Positions 3,175 to 61,256 of a DNA stretch of 64,000 bases are shown here, piece after piece. Within the stretch, counting starts at the first letter, position 1. Each line of letters opens with the position of its first letter. The stretch comes from an uncultured Candidatus Saccharibacteria bacterium (GTDB taxonomy: Bacteria > Patescibacteriota > Saccharimonadia > Saccharimonadales > UBA10212): NCBI GenBank assembly GCA_964624785.1, contig CAZUXR010000002.1, forward strand, positions 363 through 64,362, given 5' to 3'. The position numbers and the translations under genes are program-made. A model generated the notes under the pieces. That model was given only the letters and a program-made list of their open reading frames with translations. It did not search any database and was not told where the DNA came from.

Positions 3175-4476
3175 ATGTTCACTAAAAAAACAATTCGCGA
3201 TATTGACCTTCAGGGCAAAACGGTGCTACTGCGCGCCGATTATAATGAGCCGGAAAAAAACGGTAAAATTAGCGACGATTACCGTATAAAAAAATCTTTA
3301 CCAACAGTTAAATACATCCTGGATCAGCCTGGGGCTAAACTTGTAATTATCTCTCATCTTGGGCGGCCAAAAGACGCTAACGACAAAGAATTTAGCTTAA
3401 AGTCCGTGGCTGTACGGTTAGGTGAATTGCTGGATAAAAAAGTACAGTTTGCACCTGATTGTATTGGCGAGCAAGCCAAAAAAGCGGCCACTGAACTCGG
3501 AGCAGGCGGCGTGCTACTACTAGAAAATGTACGGTTCCACCCGCAGGAGGAAGCTAACGACAAAGACTTTGCCCAAGCTATCGTGGATGCCACAGGGGCT
3601 GATGTATTCGTGCAAGACGGATTTGGTGTAGTGCACCGCAAACATGCTACCACCGACGCTATTGCCCACTTATTACCTTCGGTCGCAGGCTTGCTTGTAG
3701 AAAAAGAAGTAGACGTTATTACTGATGTTATGAGTAATCCAACGCGCCCGTGGGTAACAGTTGTTGGTGGTGCAAAAATTAGTGACAAAGTTGATTTTTT
3801 GAACCAGTTGATTGATAAAGCCGACTGCGTTGCAGTGGTTGGGGCGATCGCCAATAATTTTTTGCTGGCCGAAGGGTTTAAAATGGGCAGCAGCATGGTG
3901 GAACCCGAAGCAATGGATATTACTCTAGAAGTTTTGGAACGGGCGCGGATAGCCGAACGTGAGCGTAACTTTCATTTTATGATTCCCGTCGACGTAGTAG
4001 TCTCTAAGCGCAAAGACGGACTTGGCCCAACGCGCATTGTAGACTTAGCAAGCCACTCAATCGATGACATAGAAGCCTACCCTAAAAAGCCAGAACATGC
4101 TGCATATACAATCGCATCAGATGAGATGATGCTGGATATTGGTCCGGTTAGCGCAGCATATGTGGCGGGCGCAATAAAAATGTCTAACACGGTGGTTTGG
4201 AATGGAACAGCGGGCATAACAGAAGTTGCTGGAATCGGCGGGGCGGCTGCTCCGTATACCCACGGAACTCAAATTATAGTTAGTGCCATGATGGGCGCGA
4301 GTAATCGGCACAAAAACAAATCATTTACACTTGTTGGCGGCGGCGACACAGCCGCGTATGTAGAAGGCGAAGGATTGGTTGACGACTTTAGTCACGTTTC
4401 TACAGGAGGTGGGGCTAGTTTGGATCTAATGGCCGGACGCCCCTTGCCTGGTGTAGATGTGTTGCAGGATAAATAG
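3175..4476 (+). CDS. pgk: Phosphoglycerate kinase
   Basis: RADYNEP, ISHLGRP and GGGDTAA motifs. The full-length two-domain PGK is present. Confidence 0.95.
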   Translation: MFTKKTIRDIDLQGKTVLLRADYNEPEKNGKISDDYRIKKSLPTVKYILDQPGAKLVIISHLGRPKDANDKEFSLKSVAVRLGELLDKKVQFAPDCIGEQAKKAATELGAGGVLLLENVRFHPQEEANDKDFAQAIVDATGADVFVQDGFGVVHRKHATTDAIAHLLPSVAGLLVEKEVDVITDVMSNPTRPWVTVVGGAKISDKVDFLNQLIDKADCVAVVGAIANNFLLAEGFKMGSSMVEPEAMDITLEVLERARIAERERNFHFMIPVDVVVSKRKDGLGPTRIVDLASHSIDDIEAYPKKPEHAAYTIASDEMMLDIGPVSAAYVAGAIKMSNTVVWNGTAGITEVAGIGGAAAPYTHGTQIIVSAMMGASNRHKNKSFTLVGGGDTAAYVEGEGLVDDFSHVSTGGGASLDLMAGRPLPGVDVLQDK

Positions 4477-11441: not shown

Positions 11442-11462
11442 GTGCGAGGCCAGGCCTCACAC
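11442..11462. repeat. REP-like palindromic repeat GTGCGAGGCCAGGCCTCACAC (copy 1, intergenic)
   Basis: The same ~21-bp palindrome (core GTGAGGCC/GGCCTCAC) recurs at 50020, 50068 and 52518. Confidence 0.7.
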
Positions 11463-11564: not shown

Positions 11565-11971
11565 GGGGCTGAATTTTAAGCTCGACGTTGGACTTTAACA
11601 ACTTTGCATGGCAGGCCGGGTTGATCTGCACGTTAGCCGGATCAAAAAGATAGTTGCAAAAACTCTATCTCAGCGTGTAAACGCTGCTGCTGCGAACTTG
11701 TTTGCGGCATGTAGCTTTGCACCAACAGCGGCTTAAGTTATATAGGTTGCCGCTGCTCGATCGACACCAGATGAGTCGAAGTAGCGCCATATTATCTGGT
11801 TGCAGGTCTAGGAGTTTATCCGCTCTTGGGCTCTAAGATTTTAGGGTTGCGGAAATCACGCTTTTTGTTTGTTTAACAGCATGGTTACCAAAGATTTTTA
11901 AACAGACTAAGCCTGTAGTCATTAAGGAAGTTAACCGACGGACGCGGGGGAAGTATCCGCCAGCTCCACCA
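11565..11971 (+). ncRNA. ssrA: tmRNA (transfer-messenger RNA)
   Basis: The 5' end GGGGCUGAAUUUUAAGCUCGACG and 3' end GGACGCGGG...CCGCCAGCUCCACCA closely match the E. coli tmRNA acceptor and T-arm, including the G3:U pair. An internal tag frame starts at GCA 11656 (preceded by AAAAAGAUAGUU, as in E. coli AAAAAAUAGUC-GCA) and ends ...FAPTAA at TAA 11734-11736. The T-loop (GGAAGUA) is non-canonical. Confidence 0.8.
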
Positions 11972-36600: not shown

Positions 36601-36693
36601 GCTATTTTTGGCGATTATATATTTAACACACCTAAGCAGATAAAAATAATAATAGCACTTGACACACCCATTCTTGTTTGATACACTGTATAT

Positions 36694-37581
36694 ATGCAAG
36701 AGATGACAAACCTAATCGAGTTTTATAACCGCTTTAATGATGAGCAAACTTGTAGAGATTACCTCGAGAAGGCACGTTGGGGTGACAAGATAACTTGCCC
36801 TCACTGTGGAATTATCGGGAATGCCTATAAATATAAGGACGGACGGCTGTTTAAGTGTAAGGACTGCCGAAAGCAGTTTACTGTTCGTGTTGGCACTATC
36901 TTTGAGGACAGCAAACTACCCCTGCAAAAGTGGTTTCTAGCTATTTACTTGGCTACCAGTTTGAAAAAAGGCATTAGCTCAATTCAGCTTAGTAAATACT
37001 TAGGCATCACTCAAAAAACCGCGTGGTTTATGCTTCACCGTATTCGCCACGCTGTTGAAACCAACAATTACGATAAGCCGTTAGATGGTGATGTTGAAAT
37101 GGACGAAACGTATATTGGCGGTAAGACCACCGTGAAGAAAAAGTTTGATAACAAAACGCCTGTAGTCGGCGCAGTTGAGCGTAAAGGACGTGTGGTCGCA
37201 AAAGTTACTGATGACGCGTCATCAACTACCTTACAGAGCGTAATACGCGAGCGTGTTCCGGCAGATGCAAACCTGTACACAGACGACTGGAAAGGCTATC
37301 ACAGGGCAAGTCGCTTAGTGTTCATGCACCGTGCGGTCAATCACTCTAAGAAACAGTGGGCTGTTGGACAGGCGCACACCAATACAATTGAGGGCTTTTG
37401 GGCACATCTTAAGAGAGGTATAGACGGTATTTACCACCACGTTAGCCCCAAGCATCTGCAACGCTATTGCGATGAGTATCAGTATCGCTACAATACTAGA
37501 GAGATGAGTGACGGTGAACGCTTTAACGACTATTTCGCGAGCATACACACTAGACTAGAATATAAGGAGCTATTAGCATGA
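36694..37581 (+). CDS. IS1595-family DDE transposase
   Basis: N-terminal Zn-ribbon (CPHCG...CKDCRK), DDE region (MDETYIGG, YTDDWKGY), and a C-terminal HTNTIEGFW..LKRG..G.YHHVS.KHLQRY..E...RYN motif. Confidence 0.9.
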   Translation: MQEMTNLIEFYNRFNDEQTCRDYLEKARWGDKITCPHCGIIGNAYKYKDGRLFKCKDCRKQFTVRVGTIFEDSKLPLQKWFLAIYLATSLKKGISSIQLSKYLGITQKTAWFMLHRIRHAVETNNYDKPLDGDVEMDETYIGGKTTVKKKFDNKTPVVGAVERKGRVVAKVTDDASSTTLQSVIRERVPADANLYTDDWKGYHRASRLVFMHRAVNHSKKQWAVGQAHTNTIEGFWAHLKRGIDGIYHHVSPKHLQRYCDEYQYRYNTREMSDGERFNDYFASIHTRLEYKELLA

Positions 37582-38558
37582 AAAAAGAAGTTAGAAATAC
37601 TAGTAACCAGAGCGTGGGCAAGAAAATTCCGCGAGCGACTTTTAGCGGAACTTTGGAAATTGGCGACACCAACTCGTTACCTTGTTATGTACTTGAAGAT
37701 GGCCGCCGGATTTTTAGTACCAAGGGTATGATAGAAAGCCTCGGATATAAAGGAAACGCGAACGCGAACGAGATTTTCAGCAATAGAACCTTAGTACCGT
37801 ACCTCATGGCGCACGGCGACCCTTATCATTCTGGCAACTTGGTTGACTTTATTACTGACAGAGGAACTCCGGCCAAAGGTATTGATGTAGAGAAGTTCAT
37901 GGATGTTTGCCATGCTTACTCCGAGGCTTTGGACAGTGGAACACTGAAAGGCAGGAACGCGGACGCGGCCTTGCAAGCCAACGCCATTATCCGTGCTTCA
38001 TCTAAACTAGGTATTGTCGCTCTCGTTGATGAGGTTACAGGCTACCAGTATGTTCGAGCCGAGGACGCACTGCAATTCAAGCTAAAACTGTTTTTGGCAG
38101 AAGAAATGCGCGGTTGGGAAAAGACATTCCCCGATGAACTATGGATAGAGTTTGCACGCTTAACCCAATGGGAAGGACAACCAACTAAAAACCGCCCACG
38201 CTACTGGGGTTATTTAGTTATGGACTTGATATACCGTTATTTAGACCCCGAAGTCGCGAGCTATATAAAAGAGAATAAACCCAAGCCACGCAAGGGTCAG
38301 AATTATCACCAATGGTTTAACGATGACTACGGCATGAAACGACTGATTGAACATATCAACCGTGTCATCGGTATGGCTCAAGGCTGTGACACAATGGACG
38401 AGCTGAAAAAGAAAATGCACCACCGCTATGGTGGTCAACCGATACAGCTTGAAATGTTTATAGATGACCACGATAAGCGTGAGATACCCACTAAGATTGA
38501 TATGCCCTTTGATGAAGCTCTAGCAAAAATTGCCAAAGCCGACCCACCGAAGAAATAG
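37578..38558 (+). CDS. IS passenger protein of unknown function (possibly phage-related; P63C-like resemblance is unverified)
   Basis: Its ATG overlaps the transposase stop (ATGA). 326 aa with motifs VDEVTGYQYVR and W.KTFPDELW.EF.RL..W...RPRYWGY. No transposition motifs. Confidence 0.45.
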   Translation: MKKEVRNTSNQSVGKKIPRATFSGTLEIGDTNSLPCYVLEDGRRIFSTKGMIESLGYKGNANANEIFSNRTLVPYLMAHGDPYHSGNLVDFITDRGTPAKGIDVEKFMDVCHAYSEALDSGTLKGRNADAALQANAIIRASSKLGIVALVDEVTGYQYVRAEDALQFKLKLFLAEEMRGWEKTFPDELWIEFARLTQWEGQPTKNRPRYWGYLVMDLIYRYLDPEVASYIKENKPKPRKGQNYHQWFNDDYGMKRLIEHINRVIGMAQGCDTMDELKKKMHHRYGGQPIQLEMFIDDHDKREIPTKIDMPFDEALAKIAKADPPKK

Positions 38559-38795
38559 TTACCGCTTTATGCCGAGAATTGCGCCGAGTACAAACGAGCC
38601 GATGAGTAGAAGTATAGCGTGTGAGAGTTTATAGCTAAAGAACGCCCAGACAACACCACCAAGCCATACAATGCCACCTAATGAGCTGAGATATAGATTT
38701 AACTTGGGTTTACGGTGAGCGTCAGGCTGTAGCTTGTCAGAGAAGGCTACCAGTACAACCCCGATGATAATCAATGCGATTGGCATAACTGACAT
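38559..38795 (-). CDS. Small two-TM membrane protein encoded inside the IS (antisense orientation)
   Basis: 78 aa, hydrophobic (MSVMPIALIIIGVVLVAF...ILLLIGSFVLGAILGIKR). Lies wholly within the TIRs. Confidence 0.35.
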   Translation of the reverse strand: MSVMPIALIIIGVVLVAFSDKLQPDAHRKPKLNLYLSSLGGIVWLGGVVWAFFSYKLSHAILLLIGSFVLGAILGIKR

Positions 38796-38878
38796 TATAC
38801 ATTAGGTGTGTTAAATATATAATCGCCCTATTTTTCATAATCCCGACAGAGAGCAAATGTGCTATAATCAATCTGATT

Positions 38879-39292
38879 ATGCCCAGTAGTAGACTTTCGA
38901 GTTATTCCGCTGAAGCGGAATCTGCGTCTCGCCAAAAACGAGTCGGTCTCGAAAGGTCACTACCGGGCCAACCTAGTAGTGAGCTTTCTGTAACGTTCTG
39001 TTACGTCTACATTTTAAGATCATTCTCTACCGGCAATTTTTACATTGGATTTACTCATGATTTACGAAGGCGGGTAACAGAACATAAAAAAGGTTTAAAT
39101 CGTTCGACTAAAGCATATGCATCATCGTGGGAACTGGTATACTATGAAGCACATAGAAGCGAAATCGACGCGCGTAGGCGCGAGCAGTATCTCAAGACTA
39201 CGGCGGGCAATAGAGCGCTTAAGAAAATGATGCGAGAACAGTTACTAATGTACGATTTAAACAACAGAAAGTCTACTACTAGGTATGCTTGA
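38879..39292 (+). CDS. GIY-YIG nuclease family protein (small, UPF0213-like) with ~45-aa N-terminal extension
   Basis: YVYILRSFSTGNFYIGFTHDLRRRVTEHKKG...WELVYYE is the GIY-YIG core. TATAAT lies 10 nt upstream of ATG 38879 (leaderless), and there is no in-frame alternative start before the core. Confidence 0.65.
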   Translation: MPSSRLSSYSAEAESASRQKRVGLERSLPGQPSSELSVTFCYVYILRSFSTGNFYIGFTHDLRRRVTEHKKGLNRSTKAYASSWELVYYEAHRSEIDARRREQYLKTTAGNRALKKMMREQLLMYDLNNRKSTTRYA

Positions 39293-49593: not shown

Positions 49594-52473
49594 TTGACAG
49601 ATTTTATTTCTATAAAAGGGGCGCGGGAACACAATTTAAAAGACATTAGTCTTGATATTCCGCGTGGTCAATTGGTGGTTATAACTGGGCTTTCGGGATC
49701 CGGCAAGTCCAGCCTTGCTTTTGATACCATCTACGCCGAAGGCCAGCGGCGATATGTAGAAAGCCTGAGCGCGTACGCCCGGCAATTTTTGGGTTTGATG
49801 GAAAAGCCCGATGTCGACCAGATTGACGGTTTAAGCCCGGCGATTAGCATTGATCAGAAATCGACCAGTCGTAATCCACGCAGCACAGTCGCGACCGTCA
49901 CAGAAATTTATGATTATTTGCGTTTGCTTTTTGCTCGTGTTGGCACGCCGCACTGCCCAGTCTGCGACAAAGCTGTCACCCGCCAAACAACCGCGAATGT
50001 TATCGACCAAGTTGCGAATGTGCGAGGCCAGGCCTCACACCGTGGAGTGTCACCTCAAGAAAATGCGTTAGGCCAGGCCTCACACAAGGATTCCGAAGGG
50101 AGCAGATTAATCATTCTGGCCCCAGTTATTTTGGATAAAAAAGGCGCATTTGAACATATTCCGGAACAGTTCATGCGCGCTGGTTTTGCGCGCGCAAGAG
50201 TAGACGGAATAATCTACGCGCTAGACGAATTCCCAGAACTAGATAAAAACTATAAGCACAAAATAGAAATAGTAGTTGATCGGCTGGTAAATTCCACAGA
50301 AAACCGTGGCCGCTTGGCGCAGAGTGTCGAGCAAGCTTTTGATCTAGCCAATGGTTTGATGATCGTAAACGATGCCGATTCAAATAAAGACACCCTTTAT
50401 TCACTTAAATACGCGTGTGTTGATCATCCGGACGTGGCAATTCCAGAACTAGAGCCGCGTACATTTAGCTTTAACAGCCCCCATGGTGCCTGCCCAGTAT
50501 GTACTGGCCTGGGTAACCGGTTAGAAGTTGACCCCGAACTGGTCATACCAAATGGCCGGCTAACTTTGGCAGAGGGCGCAATCCGCCCATATAACCGTGT
50601 TAACACAGACGCTTGGTATATGAAGAAGCTGCAGGCCGTGGGTGATCGTTATGACTTTAGCTTGCATGTGCCAACTGCCGAACTAAGTGACAGTCAGCAA
50701 AATAAGATTCTTTATGGAACTGGTGACGAAAAGTACAAGATTAGGCTGGGTCATGGGCGGACTTTCGAGACAACCTACGAAGGTGTAATCCCAAACCTAG
50801 AACGCCGTCACAAAGAAACAGACAGTGATTTTATGCGCCGTGACATAGAACGATTTATGCAAGAGCGCCCGTGCCACACCTGCAAAGGCCGCCGCTTAAA
50901 GCCAGAGGTTTTGGCGGTTACAGTAGATGGGCAGAGTATTATGGATATTTGCGAACTCAACATCGATGAATCTATAGAATTCTTTAAAACTATCAAACTG
51001 GATACAACCGGTGTGAGCATTGCCAAGCAAATACTAAAGGAGATTAACGCTCGGCTGGAATTTTTGCGCGATGTCGGGCTAAACTATCTGAATCTTGCTC
51101 GGAGTGCGGTGAGTTTAAGCGGTGGCGAAGCGCAGCGGATTCGCCTGGCGACACAGATCGGTAGCGGCTTGCAAGGGGTTTTATATGTATTGGATGAACC
51201 TAGCATTGGCTTGCATCAGCGTGATAACGAGCGGCTGTTAAAAACACTGGAGCGCCTGCGAGATTTAGGCAATAGTGTGATTGTAGTGGAGCACGACGAG
51301 GAGACAATTCGGGCTGCTGATTTTTTAGTAGACATTGGTCCGGGAGCAGGAATACACGGCGGCAGAGTGGTGGCAAGCGGCACGCCGGCAGAGGTCGCTA
51401 AATCCAAAATAAGCATCACGGCACAATTTCTGCGCGGCGATAAAATTATAAGTACTCCAAAAAAACGCCGCCCGGGCAACGGAAATAAGCTATCGATTAT
51501 AGGTGCAGCCGAACACAATCTAAAAAATGTAGATGTGGATATTCCACTCGGCCAGCTGGTTGTAGTGAGTGGCGTCAGCGGATCCGGTAAGTCTAGCTTA
51601 ATTAACGATATTCTGGCACGCGAACTCAGCGCCAGACTCATGCGAGCCAATGCAAATCCCGGCCGCCACAAAGAGGTTCAAGGGATCAAAAATCTAGATA
51701 AGGCAATCGTGATAGATCAATCGCCGATCGGGCGTACACCGCGGTCCAATCCGGCAACTTACACAGGTTTATTTACGCCAATCCGCGATCTATTTTCGCA
51801 GATGCCAGAAGCTAAACTGCGTGGATACAACCCTGGCCGCTTTAGTTTTAACGTTAAAGGTGGGCGCTGCGAAAATTGCGCGGGCGACGGTGTTATAAAA
51901 ATAGAAATGCACTTTTTACCTGATGTTTACGTGCCGTGCGAAGTCTGCCACGGCAAACGCTACAACCGCGAAGCACTGGAGATTCACTACAAAGGCAAGA
52001 CAATCAGCGATGTGCTGGATCTGACCTGCGAACAAGCTCTAGATTTTTTTGAAAATATTCCGGCAATTGCTCGCAAACTGCAAACTTTGGTAGATGTGGG
52101 TTTGGGCTACATTGCGCTCGGCCAACCTGCCACGACTTTATCGGGCGGGGAAGCTCAGCGTATAAAGCTGGCAAGCGAACTATCGCGTCGACCAACCGGA
52201 CGCACACTCTACATCTTGGATGAACCAACCACTGGGTTACATATGGCGGATGTAGCTAAGCTGCTTGATGTTTTGCATGCGCTAGTAGACACCGGCAACA
52301 GTATGGTGGTGATCGAGCATAACTTGGATGTTATAAAGTCCGCTGATCACATCATAGATATGGGTCCAGAGGGCGGTGAGGCAGGCGGTCGGGTTGTAGC
52401 TAGCGGCACGCCAGAACAGGTAGCCAAGATTTCTGCCAGCTACACCGGCCAATACCTATCCAAAGTTCTCTAA
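49594..52473 (+). CDS. uvrA: Excinuclease ABC subunit A, carrying a 23-aa in-frame insertion encoded by two REP-like repeats
   Basis: Two ABC ATPase modules ([18 protein letters not shown]), Zn fingers ([12 protein letters not shown]), and signature LSGGEAQR twice. The extra segment [23 protein letters not shown] corresponds to 50020-50088. Confidence 0.95.
50020..50088. repeat. Two REP-like palindromes (GTGCGAGGCCAGGCCTCACAC ...30 nt... GGCCAGGCCTCACACAAG) inside the uvrA coding frame
   Basis: The sequence matches the intergenic copies at 11442 and 52518. The insert is 69 nt, which is 23 codons, so it stays in frame. Confidence 0.75.
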
Positions 52474-52517: not shown

Positions 52518-52545
52518 GCGTGAGGCCAGGCCTCACGCAAGGATT
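52518..52545. repeat. REP-like palindromic repeat GCGTGAGGCCAGGCCTCACGCAAGGATT (copy 4, intergenic after uvrA)
   Basis: It shares GGCCAGGCCTCACRCAAGGATT with the 50068 copy. Confidence 0.7.
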
Positions 52546-52606
52546 GTGATGCGCGAATCAGACTTGGGATTTTGCGGGTGATGAGTTGCTAGAGGGGTCT
52601 AAAAGT

Positions 52607-61169: not shown

Positions 61170-61256
61170 TGGTGGGGATGAGAGGACTTGAACCTCCACG
61201 AACAAATGTTCACTACGTCCTGAACGTAGCGCGTCTACCAATTCCGCCACATCCCC
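61170..61256 (-). tRNA. tRNA-Leu (anticodon CAG)
   Basis: Reverse complement: GGGGAUG-UG-GCGG-AAUUGGUAGA-CGCG-CUACG-UUCAGGA-CGUAG-UGAACAUUUGUUCGU-GGAGG-UUCAAGU-CCUCU-CAUCCCC-A-CCA. It has a class II long variable arm, is nearly identical in its arms to E. coli tRNA-Leu(CAG), and encodes its CCA. Confidence 0.9.

Follow-up and report, generated by a model that had tools for sequence, protein, structure and literature searches.

The uvrA gene of an uncultured Saccharibacteria bacterium, located in the 64-kb stretch of DNA that was analysed (hereafter the window), contains an additional segment built from two copies of a short palindrome (Table 1). The gene product shares 81–83% identity at 100% query coverage with 119 Saccharibacteria UvrA proteins and matches solved UvrA structures with an E-value of about 1e-113. 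The additional residues are missing in 116 of the 120 best UvrA homologues: 108 of the 120 have a length of 936–938 aa, and the remaining eight insert-less proteins deviate solely at their termini. Residues at this position are present in only four sequences, namely the query itself, P0002, P0005 and P0017. Codon alignment with the empty alleles displays a clean gain of 69 nt, with edges uncertain by a few nucleotides, in a loop that otherwise consists of seven codons. The 21-nt unit corresponds to seven codons and is stop-free in the uvrA register (V/A-R/L-G-Q-A-S-H), and the whole insert measures 69 nt, so that the uvrA reading frame survives. When the UvrA segment centred on the insert was used as a query, only short fragments were retrieved. 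The 23 extra in-frame codons of the original prediction are thus confirmed by the homologues; its description of uvrA as essential was overstated, uvrA being non-essential in most bacteria.

Table 1. Positions of uvrA, its insert and the palindrome copies in the window.
Feature	Position	Strand	Sequence or basis
uvrA CDS, 959 aa, TTG start, intact	49594..52473	+	ORF list, homologues, solved structures
Insert, 69 nt = 23 codons, residues 143-165	50020..50088	+	Protein and codon alignments with insert-less relatives
Copy A, intergenic	11442-11462	+	21-mer GTGCGAGGCCAGGCCTCACAC
Copy B, in uvrA	50020-50040	+	GTGCGAGGCCAGGCCTCACAC, read V-R-G-Q-A-S-H
Spacer between copies B and C, 24 nt	50041..50064	+	RGVSPQEN
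Copy C, in uvrA	50065-50085, with tail to 50092	+	GCGTTAGGCCAGGCCTCACAC + 7-nt tail AAGGATT
Copy D, intergenic	52518-52538, with tail to 52545	+	GCGTGAGGCCAGGCCTCACGC + AAGGATT tail

The palindrome, GYGNNAGGCC-A-GGCCTCACRC, is present four times in the window. A scan for its core, GGCCAGGCCTCAC, gave exactly four matches, all on the plus strand (positions 11448, 50026, 50071 and 52524), and all four copies are co-oriented, with the central A on this strand. Shuffled sequences contained on average 0.96 matches at up to two mismatches, and the observed number of four was reached in none of 100 shuffles. The flanks of the copies are mutually unrelated, indicating a dispersed short palindrome within the size range of REPs (20–40 bp). 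Two local subtypes can be distinguished, each of which also occurs singly in the window. Copies A and B (ATGTGCGAGG...) are identical over 23 nt when the AT in front of them is counted, while copies C and D (GCGT(T/G)AGG...CAAGGATT) agree at 26 of 28 nt and have the AAGGATT tail in common; copy D is a perfect 10+1+10 palindrome. The consensus GTGMGAGG that had been proposed for the repeat applies to copies A and B only, not to C and D, and the two uvrA copies, reported as 30 nt apart, are separated by 24 nt. The predicted intergenic copies behind the NUDIX gene and behind uvrA were found at both sites, and the palindrome is hence not confined to uvrA on this contig. A further palindrome in the pyruvate kinase gene (2877-2897), which has the outer arms in common with the repeat, was rejected as an insertion; it encodes a conserved motif.

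A single base separates the NUDIX stop codon from copy A, which begins 2 nt past this codon and is situated roughly 100 nt in front of the tmRNA gene. Copy D occupies the gap between two convergent genes, uvrA, whose stop codon precedes it by 44 nt, and the VTT/DedA (dedA-like) gene, whose end is 68 nt away. Both intergenic copies are therefore found just 3′ of ORFs, as is usual for REPs, in a set of only four copies of which two are intragenic. Hairpins of -12.9 kcal/mol and -18.7 kcal/mol (z = -3.25) are predicted for copies A and D, respectively. The first bases of the copies pair with the last ones. The GTAG, GT(A/G)G or CGTC tags are absent from the ends of the window copies, which start with GTGC, GCGT or GTGA, and the ends GTG-N-GAG ... 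CTC-N-CAC merely resemble a GTGG-type head. In a genome collection that does not include the source genome, the window palindrome gave 11 single matches in unrelated GC-rich genomes, which is about the chance expectation; a viral collection contained no match for the sister variant described below and a single, likely fortuitous one for the window variant.

Naturally competent bacteria carry an excess of DNA-uptake sequences in their genome-maintenance genes, uptake of DNA is presumed for Saccharibacteria, and the paired uptake sequences of Neisseria have a layout like that of a 10-mer followed by one nucleotide and the inverted 10-mer. The palindrome could on these grounds be regarded as an inverted pair of such sequences. 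Yet the half-site GGCCTCAC is confined to the four window palindromes, GTGAGGCC or GCGAGGCC are found elsewhere at the expected background level, and one palindrome per 16 kb is far below the density of uptake sequences. This very improbable reading was rejected because isolated half-sites are absent.

An origin of the doublet as a MITE of a DDE insertion sequence has a candidate source in the window itself, an IS1595-family transposase gene (36694-37581) in an element bounded by perfect terminal inverted repeats of 26 nt. These repeats (GGCGATTATATATTTAACACACCTAA) are however unrelated to the palindrome, solitary 21-nt copies occur, and comparison with the empty alleles revealed no target-site duplication flanking the uvrA insert; a derivation from such an element is accordingly hardly credible.

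A second Saccharibacteria lineage, represented by P0002, P0005 and P0017 and recovered as loci L001-L006 on no fewer than 20 contigs of several samples, contains a doublet of 24–27 codons in uvrA at a practically identical position. It has the form GTGAGAGGTCGGACCTCTCAC ... GTGAAAGGTCGGACCTCTCAC, and its building block is a sister palindrome, GTGAGAGGTC-G-GACCTCTCAC. Among these inserts, a variant exists that differs in length by 9 nt and stays in frame, and the nearest relative of the lineage, at 94% identity, is devoid of the doublet. The L001 doublet is predicted to fold into one long hairpin (z = -6.5). These data also bear on the possibility that the extra 69 nt are an assembly or sequencing artefact. 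The window version is known from one contig, but the frame is kept, the repeat is present at two further sites of the same contig, and the analogous insert, length variant included, recurs across contigs and samples, which makes an artefact very improbable.

The two lineages share the loop, the register and the two-copy layout of the insert, and the lengths are similar (69 versus 72 nt). A single ancestral insertion of the doublet, followed by many precise losses and by updating of the palindromes to the variant of each genome, would account for these similarities. On a neighbour-joining tree, though, a single gain requires at least 16 precise losses as opposed to two gains, and the two insert-bearing lineages were never nearest neighbours in 50 bootstrap resamples. 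The inferred insertion points differ by 1–2 codons in the codon alignment, and the spacers, 24 nt in the window and 33 nt in the L001-type lineage, are not significantly similar (p = 0.17). A single ancient insertion is thus improbable, and both lineages apparently gained their doublets separately. An exchange of uvrA sequence between the lineages was rejected as well, as the window and L001 show no locally raised DNA identity around the insert.

The sister variant is dispersed. The exact 21-mer is present on eight metagenome contigs at seven distinct places (L026 and L038 represent one site) with unrelated flanks, mostly in intergenic regions and also in frame within genes. One of the latter copies encodes VRGPTSH in a P-type ATPase gene; in one relative, the palindrome is kept by a paired C-G to T-A change, while it has decayed in another. 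The variants are almost always perfect palindromes that differ by changes in complementary pairs, a mode of maintenance also seen in Stenotrophomonas REPs. An intergenic inverted doublet with a 45-nt spacer was detected at L048, and dimers with short spacers, a feature of REPs, thus recur at this locus and in the uvrA doublets.

Three of the contigs with the sister variant, all of them short, also contain a Y1/HUH transposase gene that resembles RAYTs. The palindrome is located 20 nt upstream of this gene in L043, 78 nt upstream in L044, where the locus is cut by the contig end, and about 1.4 kb downstream in L038. The L043 copy in front of the ATG has a central G, and copies with a central C are found near the 3′ end. 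The L038 gene is bracketed by shorter, related palindromes, with AAAAGGTTCGACCTTTT in front of it and the exact reverse complement of this sequence 29 nt past the stop codon. The three transposases reach 29–37 bits with Pfam Y1_Tnp (PF01797, cut-off 23) and retain the HUH and Tyr motifs; their sole NCBIfam match is 'REP-associated tyrosine transposase' (REP_Tyr_transpos), with 32–40 bits, below the equivalog cut-off of 80. The original label 'REP-like' gains support from this association, which is provided by the sister variant and not by the window variant. Within the window, tblastn gave no match to a RAYT or Y1 gene at E < 10, a Pfam scan of 20 window ORFs showed none, and the RAYT-bearing contigs have no genes in common with the Saccharibacteria loci compared. 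The window variant would be mobilised by a RAYT encoded elsewhere in the genome. When the viral collection was searched with a RAYT profile, a single distantly RAYT-like gene emerged, and the palindromes that accompany it are different ones.

Compared with the REP/REPIN-RAYT systems (Nunvar et al. 2010, PMC2817692; Bertels and Rainey 2011, PMC3116915), the sister variant shows a similar arrangement, as it lies directly upstream of Y1/HUH genes on two contigs, inverted palindromes enclose a third gene of this type, and doublets can form a long hairpin. In contrast to these systems, the transposases score under the NCBIfam RAYT cut-off, one RAYT-like ORF holds three in-frame palindrome copies, the uvrA doublets are direct rather than inverted, as judged by the central base, and the window is without a RAYT.

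A different view would be that the palindromes are selected, immobile cis-elements, such as protein-binding sites, mRNA 3′-end stabilisers or unconventional terminators, and that duplication in place, combined with quasipalindrome template-switch correction, produced the doublet in uvrA. The near-universal perfect palindromy with complementary paired changes and the location of intergenic copies directly after genes agree with this view, as does a faint resemblance between the sequences that precede each second copy and the first one (in L001, GACCAAATT versus GACCAAAAT). However, identical 21–23-mers with unrelated flanks at many loci of several organisms argue for copying instead of convergence, and the adjoining RAYT-like genes offer a copying mechanism. 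Moreover, neither copy A nor copy D matches an intrinsic-terminator pattern (hairpin plus T-run), and the empty loop of the relatives comprises only seven codons, so that there is nothing to duplicate. Immobile cis-elements are thus an unlikely explanation, although a function of individual copies is compatible with mobility.

Since the sister variant is dispersed and adjoins RAYT-like genes, the window palindrome is best interpreted as a REP-type repeat that owes its mobility to a RAYT; one doublet of the repeat landed in uvrA and is most likely tolerated there. The probability of this interpretation is estimated at roughly 70%. Against it stand the missing GTAG or CGTC tag, the low NCBIfam scores of the transposases, the lack of a RAYT in the window and a search for a target-site signature that identified none. 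The short hairpin-forming repeat would be copied around the genome as a single strand by a Y1/HUH tyrosine transposase, and one doublet, consisting of one copy of each local subtype, would have been placed in the uvrA loop. As the frame was kept, UvrA would have acquired 23 extra residues, which most likely form a tolerated, disordered surface loop.

The position of the insert is consistent with such tolerance. According to structure alignment, it falls into a loop that connects a helix to a strand where the UvrB-binding domain begins; in M. tuberculosis UvrA, this domain corresponds to residues 129-255 (PMC3167621). The segment that takes the insert is the 7-residue loop after the helix ending in ...IDQV, equivalent to M. 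tuberculosis residues about 141-145 and to chain positions 162-165 of 3ZQJ and 9GXK. The PDB alignment is interrupted between query residues 141 and 167, solved UvrAs have two residues in place of the insert, between their chain positions 162 and 165, and the alignments to the isolated UvrB-interaction domains 3fpn and 4dfc begin at query residue 166-168. AlphaFold predicts residues 144-166 as coil with pLDDT < 50, between a confident helix and a confident strand. Because the whole-protein model is poor (mean pLDDT 57, pTM 0.33), it was used just for this local contrast, and it constitutes weak structural evidence for a disordered loop. The insert is probably neutral or nearly so for repair. 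Together with the insert-less relatives and the intergenic copies, the loop position supports the original proposal of an in-frame palindromic insertion, for which structure mapping had been suggested as a check.

In-frame insertion of REPs into uvrA has precedents, and its earlier designation as rare was overstated. The 2013 catalogue of in-frame REP dimers by Di Nocera et al. already includes uvrA along with other repair genes (PMC3733652). REPs are usually intergenic and downstream of ORFs, with a minority located in frame within genes. Dimers in uvrA encode 15–30 residues, commonly about 23, and single units about seven; examples are two uvrA genes of Opitutus terrae and the Thioalkalivibrio uvrA, with 23 residues, and an excess of REPs in repair and replication genes has already been remarked (PMC3733652). 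The Saccharibacteria repeat agrees with these intragenic GTAG/CGTC dimers in unit length, in the formation of in-frame dimers and in uvrA as a target. It differs in lacking either tag, in its near-perfect 10+1+10 symmetry without an asymmetric head and in its host, a CPR bacterium with a reduced genome. The insertion site also differs from those of O. terrae, where the REPs of Oter_3168 are located at residues 224-239 and 440-462 (PMC3733652), whereas the insertion described here affects the beginning of the UvrB-binding domain.

In-frame palindromic repeats in reduced genomes are likewise known from the Rickettsia palindromic elements, some of which have been equated with CGTC REPs (PMC3733652). 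These elements are found in many housekeeping genes and are thought to occupy permissive surface positions. The classic Rickettsia elements are about 100–150 bp long, encode a conserved peptide and have no known transposase, while the repeat analysed here is a 21-nt unit with spacers that differ between the lineages and a candidate transposase family. The joining of two repeat subtypes in the uvrA doublet of the window resembles E. coli BIMEs with their paired Y and Z units; BIMEs are, however, strictly extragenic and inverted and possess defined linker motifs, none of which is evident for the repeat analysed here.

No earlier description of REP-type repeats or RAYTs in Saccharibacteria was found in the literature searched. 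The behaviour of the repeat is already known from other bacteria; new are the phylum and the member of the repeat family. The present findings extend REP-type repeats, and probably also RAYT transposases, to Saccharibacteria and their very small genomes, and add two apparently independent cases to the old, unexplained pattern of in-frame palindromic repeats in nucleotide-excision-repair genes. Besides the published uvrA cases in Verrucomicrobia and Gammaproteobacteria, the UvrB-binding domain of Saccharibacteria thus has two doublets whose sites are only 1–2 codons apart, a recurrent insertion at one uvrA loop. It is conceivable, if rather doubtful, that REP doublets in uvrA are no accident, either because the RAYT prefers the gene or site or because a longer loop is selected for tuning UvrA-UvrB loading. 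Selected loop lengthening might then alter, for example, repair or the mutation rate in reduced genomes. Since one loop of the UvrB-binding domain is affected in both cases, a merely permissive loop can be tested against an altered UvrA-UvrB function in a concrete and cheap way. For annotation, the 7-residue motif V-R/K-G-x-T/A-S-H in proteins of these organisms is to be read as repeat-derived and not as a conserved protein feature.

The contig is from Saccharibacteria (TM7), the best named UvrA matches belonging to 'Candidatus Saccharibacteria' and 'Saccharimonadales' bacteria. Within the window, the 13-mer GGCCAGGCCTCAC is found at exactly four places, always on the + strand, a number never reached by dinucleotide-preserving shuffles of the window. 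It marks four copies (A-D) of a 21-nt palindrome, which share the same orientation, as the central + strand base is equal in all of them. Copies A and B have the two preceding bases (AT) in common and copies C and D the seven following bases (AAGGATT), indicating two palindrome subtypes, one of each being present in the uvrA pair B and C. Copy A starts 2 nt past the stop codon of the NUDIX gene (one base between), with the tmRNA gene about 100 nt downstream, and copy D is located where uvrA and the VTT/DedA gene converge. The pattern of an intrinsic terminator (hairpin plus T-run) is matched by neither of these intergenic copies, and isolated half-sites are not enriched in the window. Following copy D and its AAGGATT tail, GTGATGCGCGAAT (52546-52590) is similar to copy A in its left flank and arm (GTGATGTGCGAGG) and is possibly what is left of another copy that has decayed. 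A further perfect 10+1+10 palindrome in the pyruvate kinase gene (AGTGAGGCAAATTGCCTCACT, 2877-2897) has the same outer arms as the repeat (GTGAGGC/GCCTCAC). It was rejected as an insertion, because its translation, TVRQIASL, is a conserved motif that can be aligned gap-free with solved pyruvate kinases.

Coordinates of the palindrome copies and other features (window positions unless a contig is named)
Feature	Location	Strand	Remarks
uvrA	49594-52473	+	intact, 959-residue protein
Palindrome copy A	11442-11462	+	21-mer GTGCGAGGCCAGGCCTCACAC
Palindrome copy B	50020-50040	+	21-mer same as copy A
Palindrome copy C	50065-50085	+	21-mer GCGTTAGGCCAGGCCTCACAC
Palindrome copy D	52518-52538	+	GCGTGAGGCCAGGCCTCACGC, perfect 10+1+10 palindrome
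tmRNA gene	11565-11971		Rfam 87.6 bits
tRNA gene	61173-61256	-	
IS1595-family insertion sequence	36610-38827		perfect 26-nt terminal inverted repeats GGCGATTATATATTTAACACACCTAA
IS1595-family transposase	36694-37581		cargo of the element
P63C-domain passenger ORF	37578-38558		cargo of the element
GIY-YIG nuclease ORF	38879-39292		small, immediately adjoins the IS1595 element
Y1/HUH transposase ORF	L043 106-843 (metagenome contig Ga0233412_10017131)		Pfam Y1_Tnp 29 bits, cut-off 23

Within uvrA, copies B and C are separated by a 24-nt spacer; their in-frame translations are VRGQASH and ALGQASH, respectively. Aligned by codon with its nearest relatives, the gene has cleanly gained 69 nt inside a seven-residue variable loop, bordered by the motif ...(I/V)DQ(V/I) and the strand (R/K)L(I/M)ILAP. 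Among the 120 best homologues (81-83% identity along the entire length), 108 have a length of 936-938 residues and only four, including the query, contain residues at this position. Alignments to solved UvrA structures break between query residues 141 and 167, with only two solved-chain residues skipped, and those to the isolated UvrB-interaction domains 3FPN and 4DFC start at query residue 166-168. Together with the bounds of the UvrB-binding domain in Mycobacterium tuberculosis UvrA (residues 129-255; PMC3167621), this places the insert, by alignment, near the start of that domain, which is mobile and flexibly tethered according to cryo-EM (PMC12796330). An AlphaFold model, based on a shallow alignment and poor overall (mean pLDDT 57), locally predicts a helix (133-142) and a confident strand (171-182) with coil in between (144-166), for which pLDDT stays under 50, lending weak support to an exposed, unstructured loop. 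The original prediction, i.e. intergenic copies after the NUDIX gene and after uvrA, and two copies in the uvrA frame that add exactly 23 codons, is thereby borne out. Its reading as a palindromic element tolerated in frame is supported, the codons being absent from relatives and mapping to a loop.

The same UvrA loop contains 24-27 extra residues (RGRTSHTNSLENDQNSHVKGRTSH) in a second lineage, represented by the homologues P0002, P0005 and P0017, which occur on at least 20 metagenome contigs. Here the insert DNA contains another palindrome twice, as GTGAGAGGTCGGACCTCTCAC and GTGAAAGGTCGGACCTCTCAC, and its reading register matches that in the window; compared to the window palindrome, the inner pair C9-G13 is changed to T9-A13 and symmetry is retained. 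The doublet of L001, a DNA locus of this lineage, can fold as one long hairpin (z = -6.5). The insert is also polymorphic in length: immediately behind the second palindrome, P0017 has a 9-nt tandem duplication (TCTCACATC/TCTCACATT; contig L005, 1242-1280), which keeps the frame and makes the insert three residues longer than in P0005. With insert columns removed, identity is 83.5% between the two insert-bearing lineages, 94% between the second lineage and its nearest relative, and about 85% between the window UvrA and its nearest relatives; all of these relatives lack the insert. On a neighbour-joining tree, one ancestral gain would have to be followed by 16 or more precise losses. DNA identity between the two uvrA genes does not rise locally around the insert, and their spacers are not significantly alike. 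Two separate gains of the doublet are the economical reading of these sequences.

In the metagenome scan, the exact 21-mer of this sister palindrome was found with unrelated flanks on eight low- or mid-GC contigs, which represent seven distinct places, since L026 and L038 contain the same site; variants in GC-rich contigs occur at chance level. The majority of the copies are intergenic, and L048 contains an intergenic inverted doublet. In a P-type ATPase gene (L023, 2279-2299), a perfect palindrome reads in frame as VRGPTSH. A relative with 83% protein identity (L047, 1287-1307) carries GTGCGAGGTTCAACCTCTCAC at the same codons, with a paired C-G to T-A change, and another (L048, ~11100) a decayed, non-palindromic version; in more distant relatives, the loop is shorter by 2-5 residues. 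Together, these sequences make up a small time series of one intragenic copy. The exact sister 21-mer also occurs in another frame (ERSDLS) within a glutamyl-tRNA-synthetase-like ORF on a 59% GC contig (L039, 7290-7310).

A family-wide palindrome scan of all loci revealed four copies in the 2.9-kb contig L043, one located 20 nt before the start codon of a Y1/HUH transposase ORF and three inside it in frame, reading NVKGPTSH (twice) and VKGSTFH (once). The sole NCBIfam match of this ORF is 'REP-associated tyrosine transposase' (RAYT; 32 bits, under the model cut-off of 80). Homologues are encoded on two more palindrome-bearing contigs, L044 (44% identity; palindrome 78 nt upstream) and L038 (30%; sister palindrome ~1.4 kb downstream), and all three proteins retain the HUH and tyrosine motifs. 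The L038 gene additionally has a shorter, related palindrome on either side, the downstream one at a distance of 29 nt, and the two are exact reverse complements; such inverted palindromes are the defining arrangement of RAYTs (PMC2817692). Three genes of a normally single-copy family in ~30 kb of palindrome-bearing sequence would seem, by judgement, far beyond chance. A distant RAYT-like gene on L050 (IMG/VR contig, 31% GC) is flanked by its own ~31-nt palindromes (…ATACGATGAC…GTCATCGTAT…; 2922-2952 and ~3577-3607), apparently a REP-RAYT pair distinct from the others, although it comes from a collection of viral sequences.

The palindrome is accordingly most probably a REP-type element copied by a RAYT; for the window variant we infer this link, no RAYT/Y1 transposase gene being found in the 64-kb window. 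Because the unit is 21 nt long, a single copy would never shift the reading frame, and no stop codon occurs in the register in which uvrA and the ATPase read it. A doublet would be retained only when it adds up to a multiple of three nucleotides and falls in a permissive loop; in the window uvrA, the UvrB-binding domain would have been extended by a flexible loop of 23 residues. In-frame palindromes within genes are classically known from Rickettsia palindromic elements, and the intragenic REPs catalogued by Di Nocera et al. encode ~7 residues as single units and 15-30 as dimers, are in excess in repair and replication genes, and have entered uvrA in Opitutus terrae (both genes) and in Thioalkalivibrio (two dimers of 23 residues) (PMC3733652). 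The rarity initially claimed for such an insertion was therefore overstated. The essentiality claimed for uvrA was overstated as well. Full-text literature searches retrieved no publication describing REPs or RAYTs in Saccharibacteria or any other CPR bacteria. What is new is the host phylum, the form of the repeat, which as a near-perfect 21-nt palindrome differs from GTAG/CGTC-tagged REPs in lacking either tag, the repeated targeting of one UvrA loop, and a RAYT-like gene that itself bears in-frame copies.

The only transposase in the window belongs to the IS1595-family element, which was rejected as kin of the palindrome family, its terminal repeats being unrelated. The neighbouring GIY-YIG ORF is bracketed and preceded by a ~20-nt inverted repeat (CCCAGTAGTAGACTTTC-like) that is present in several copies.
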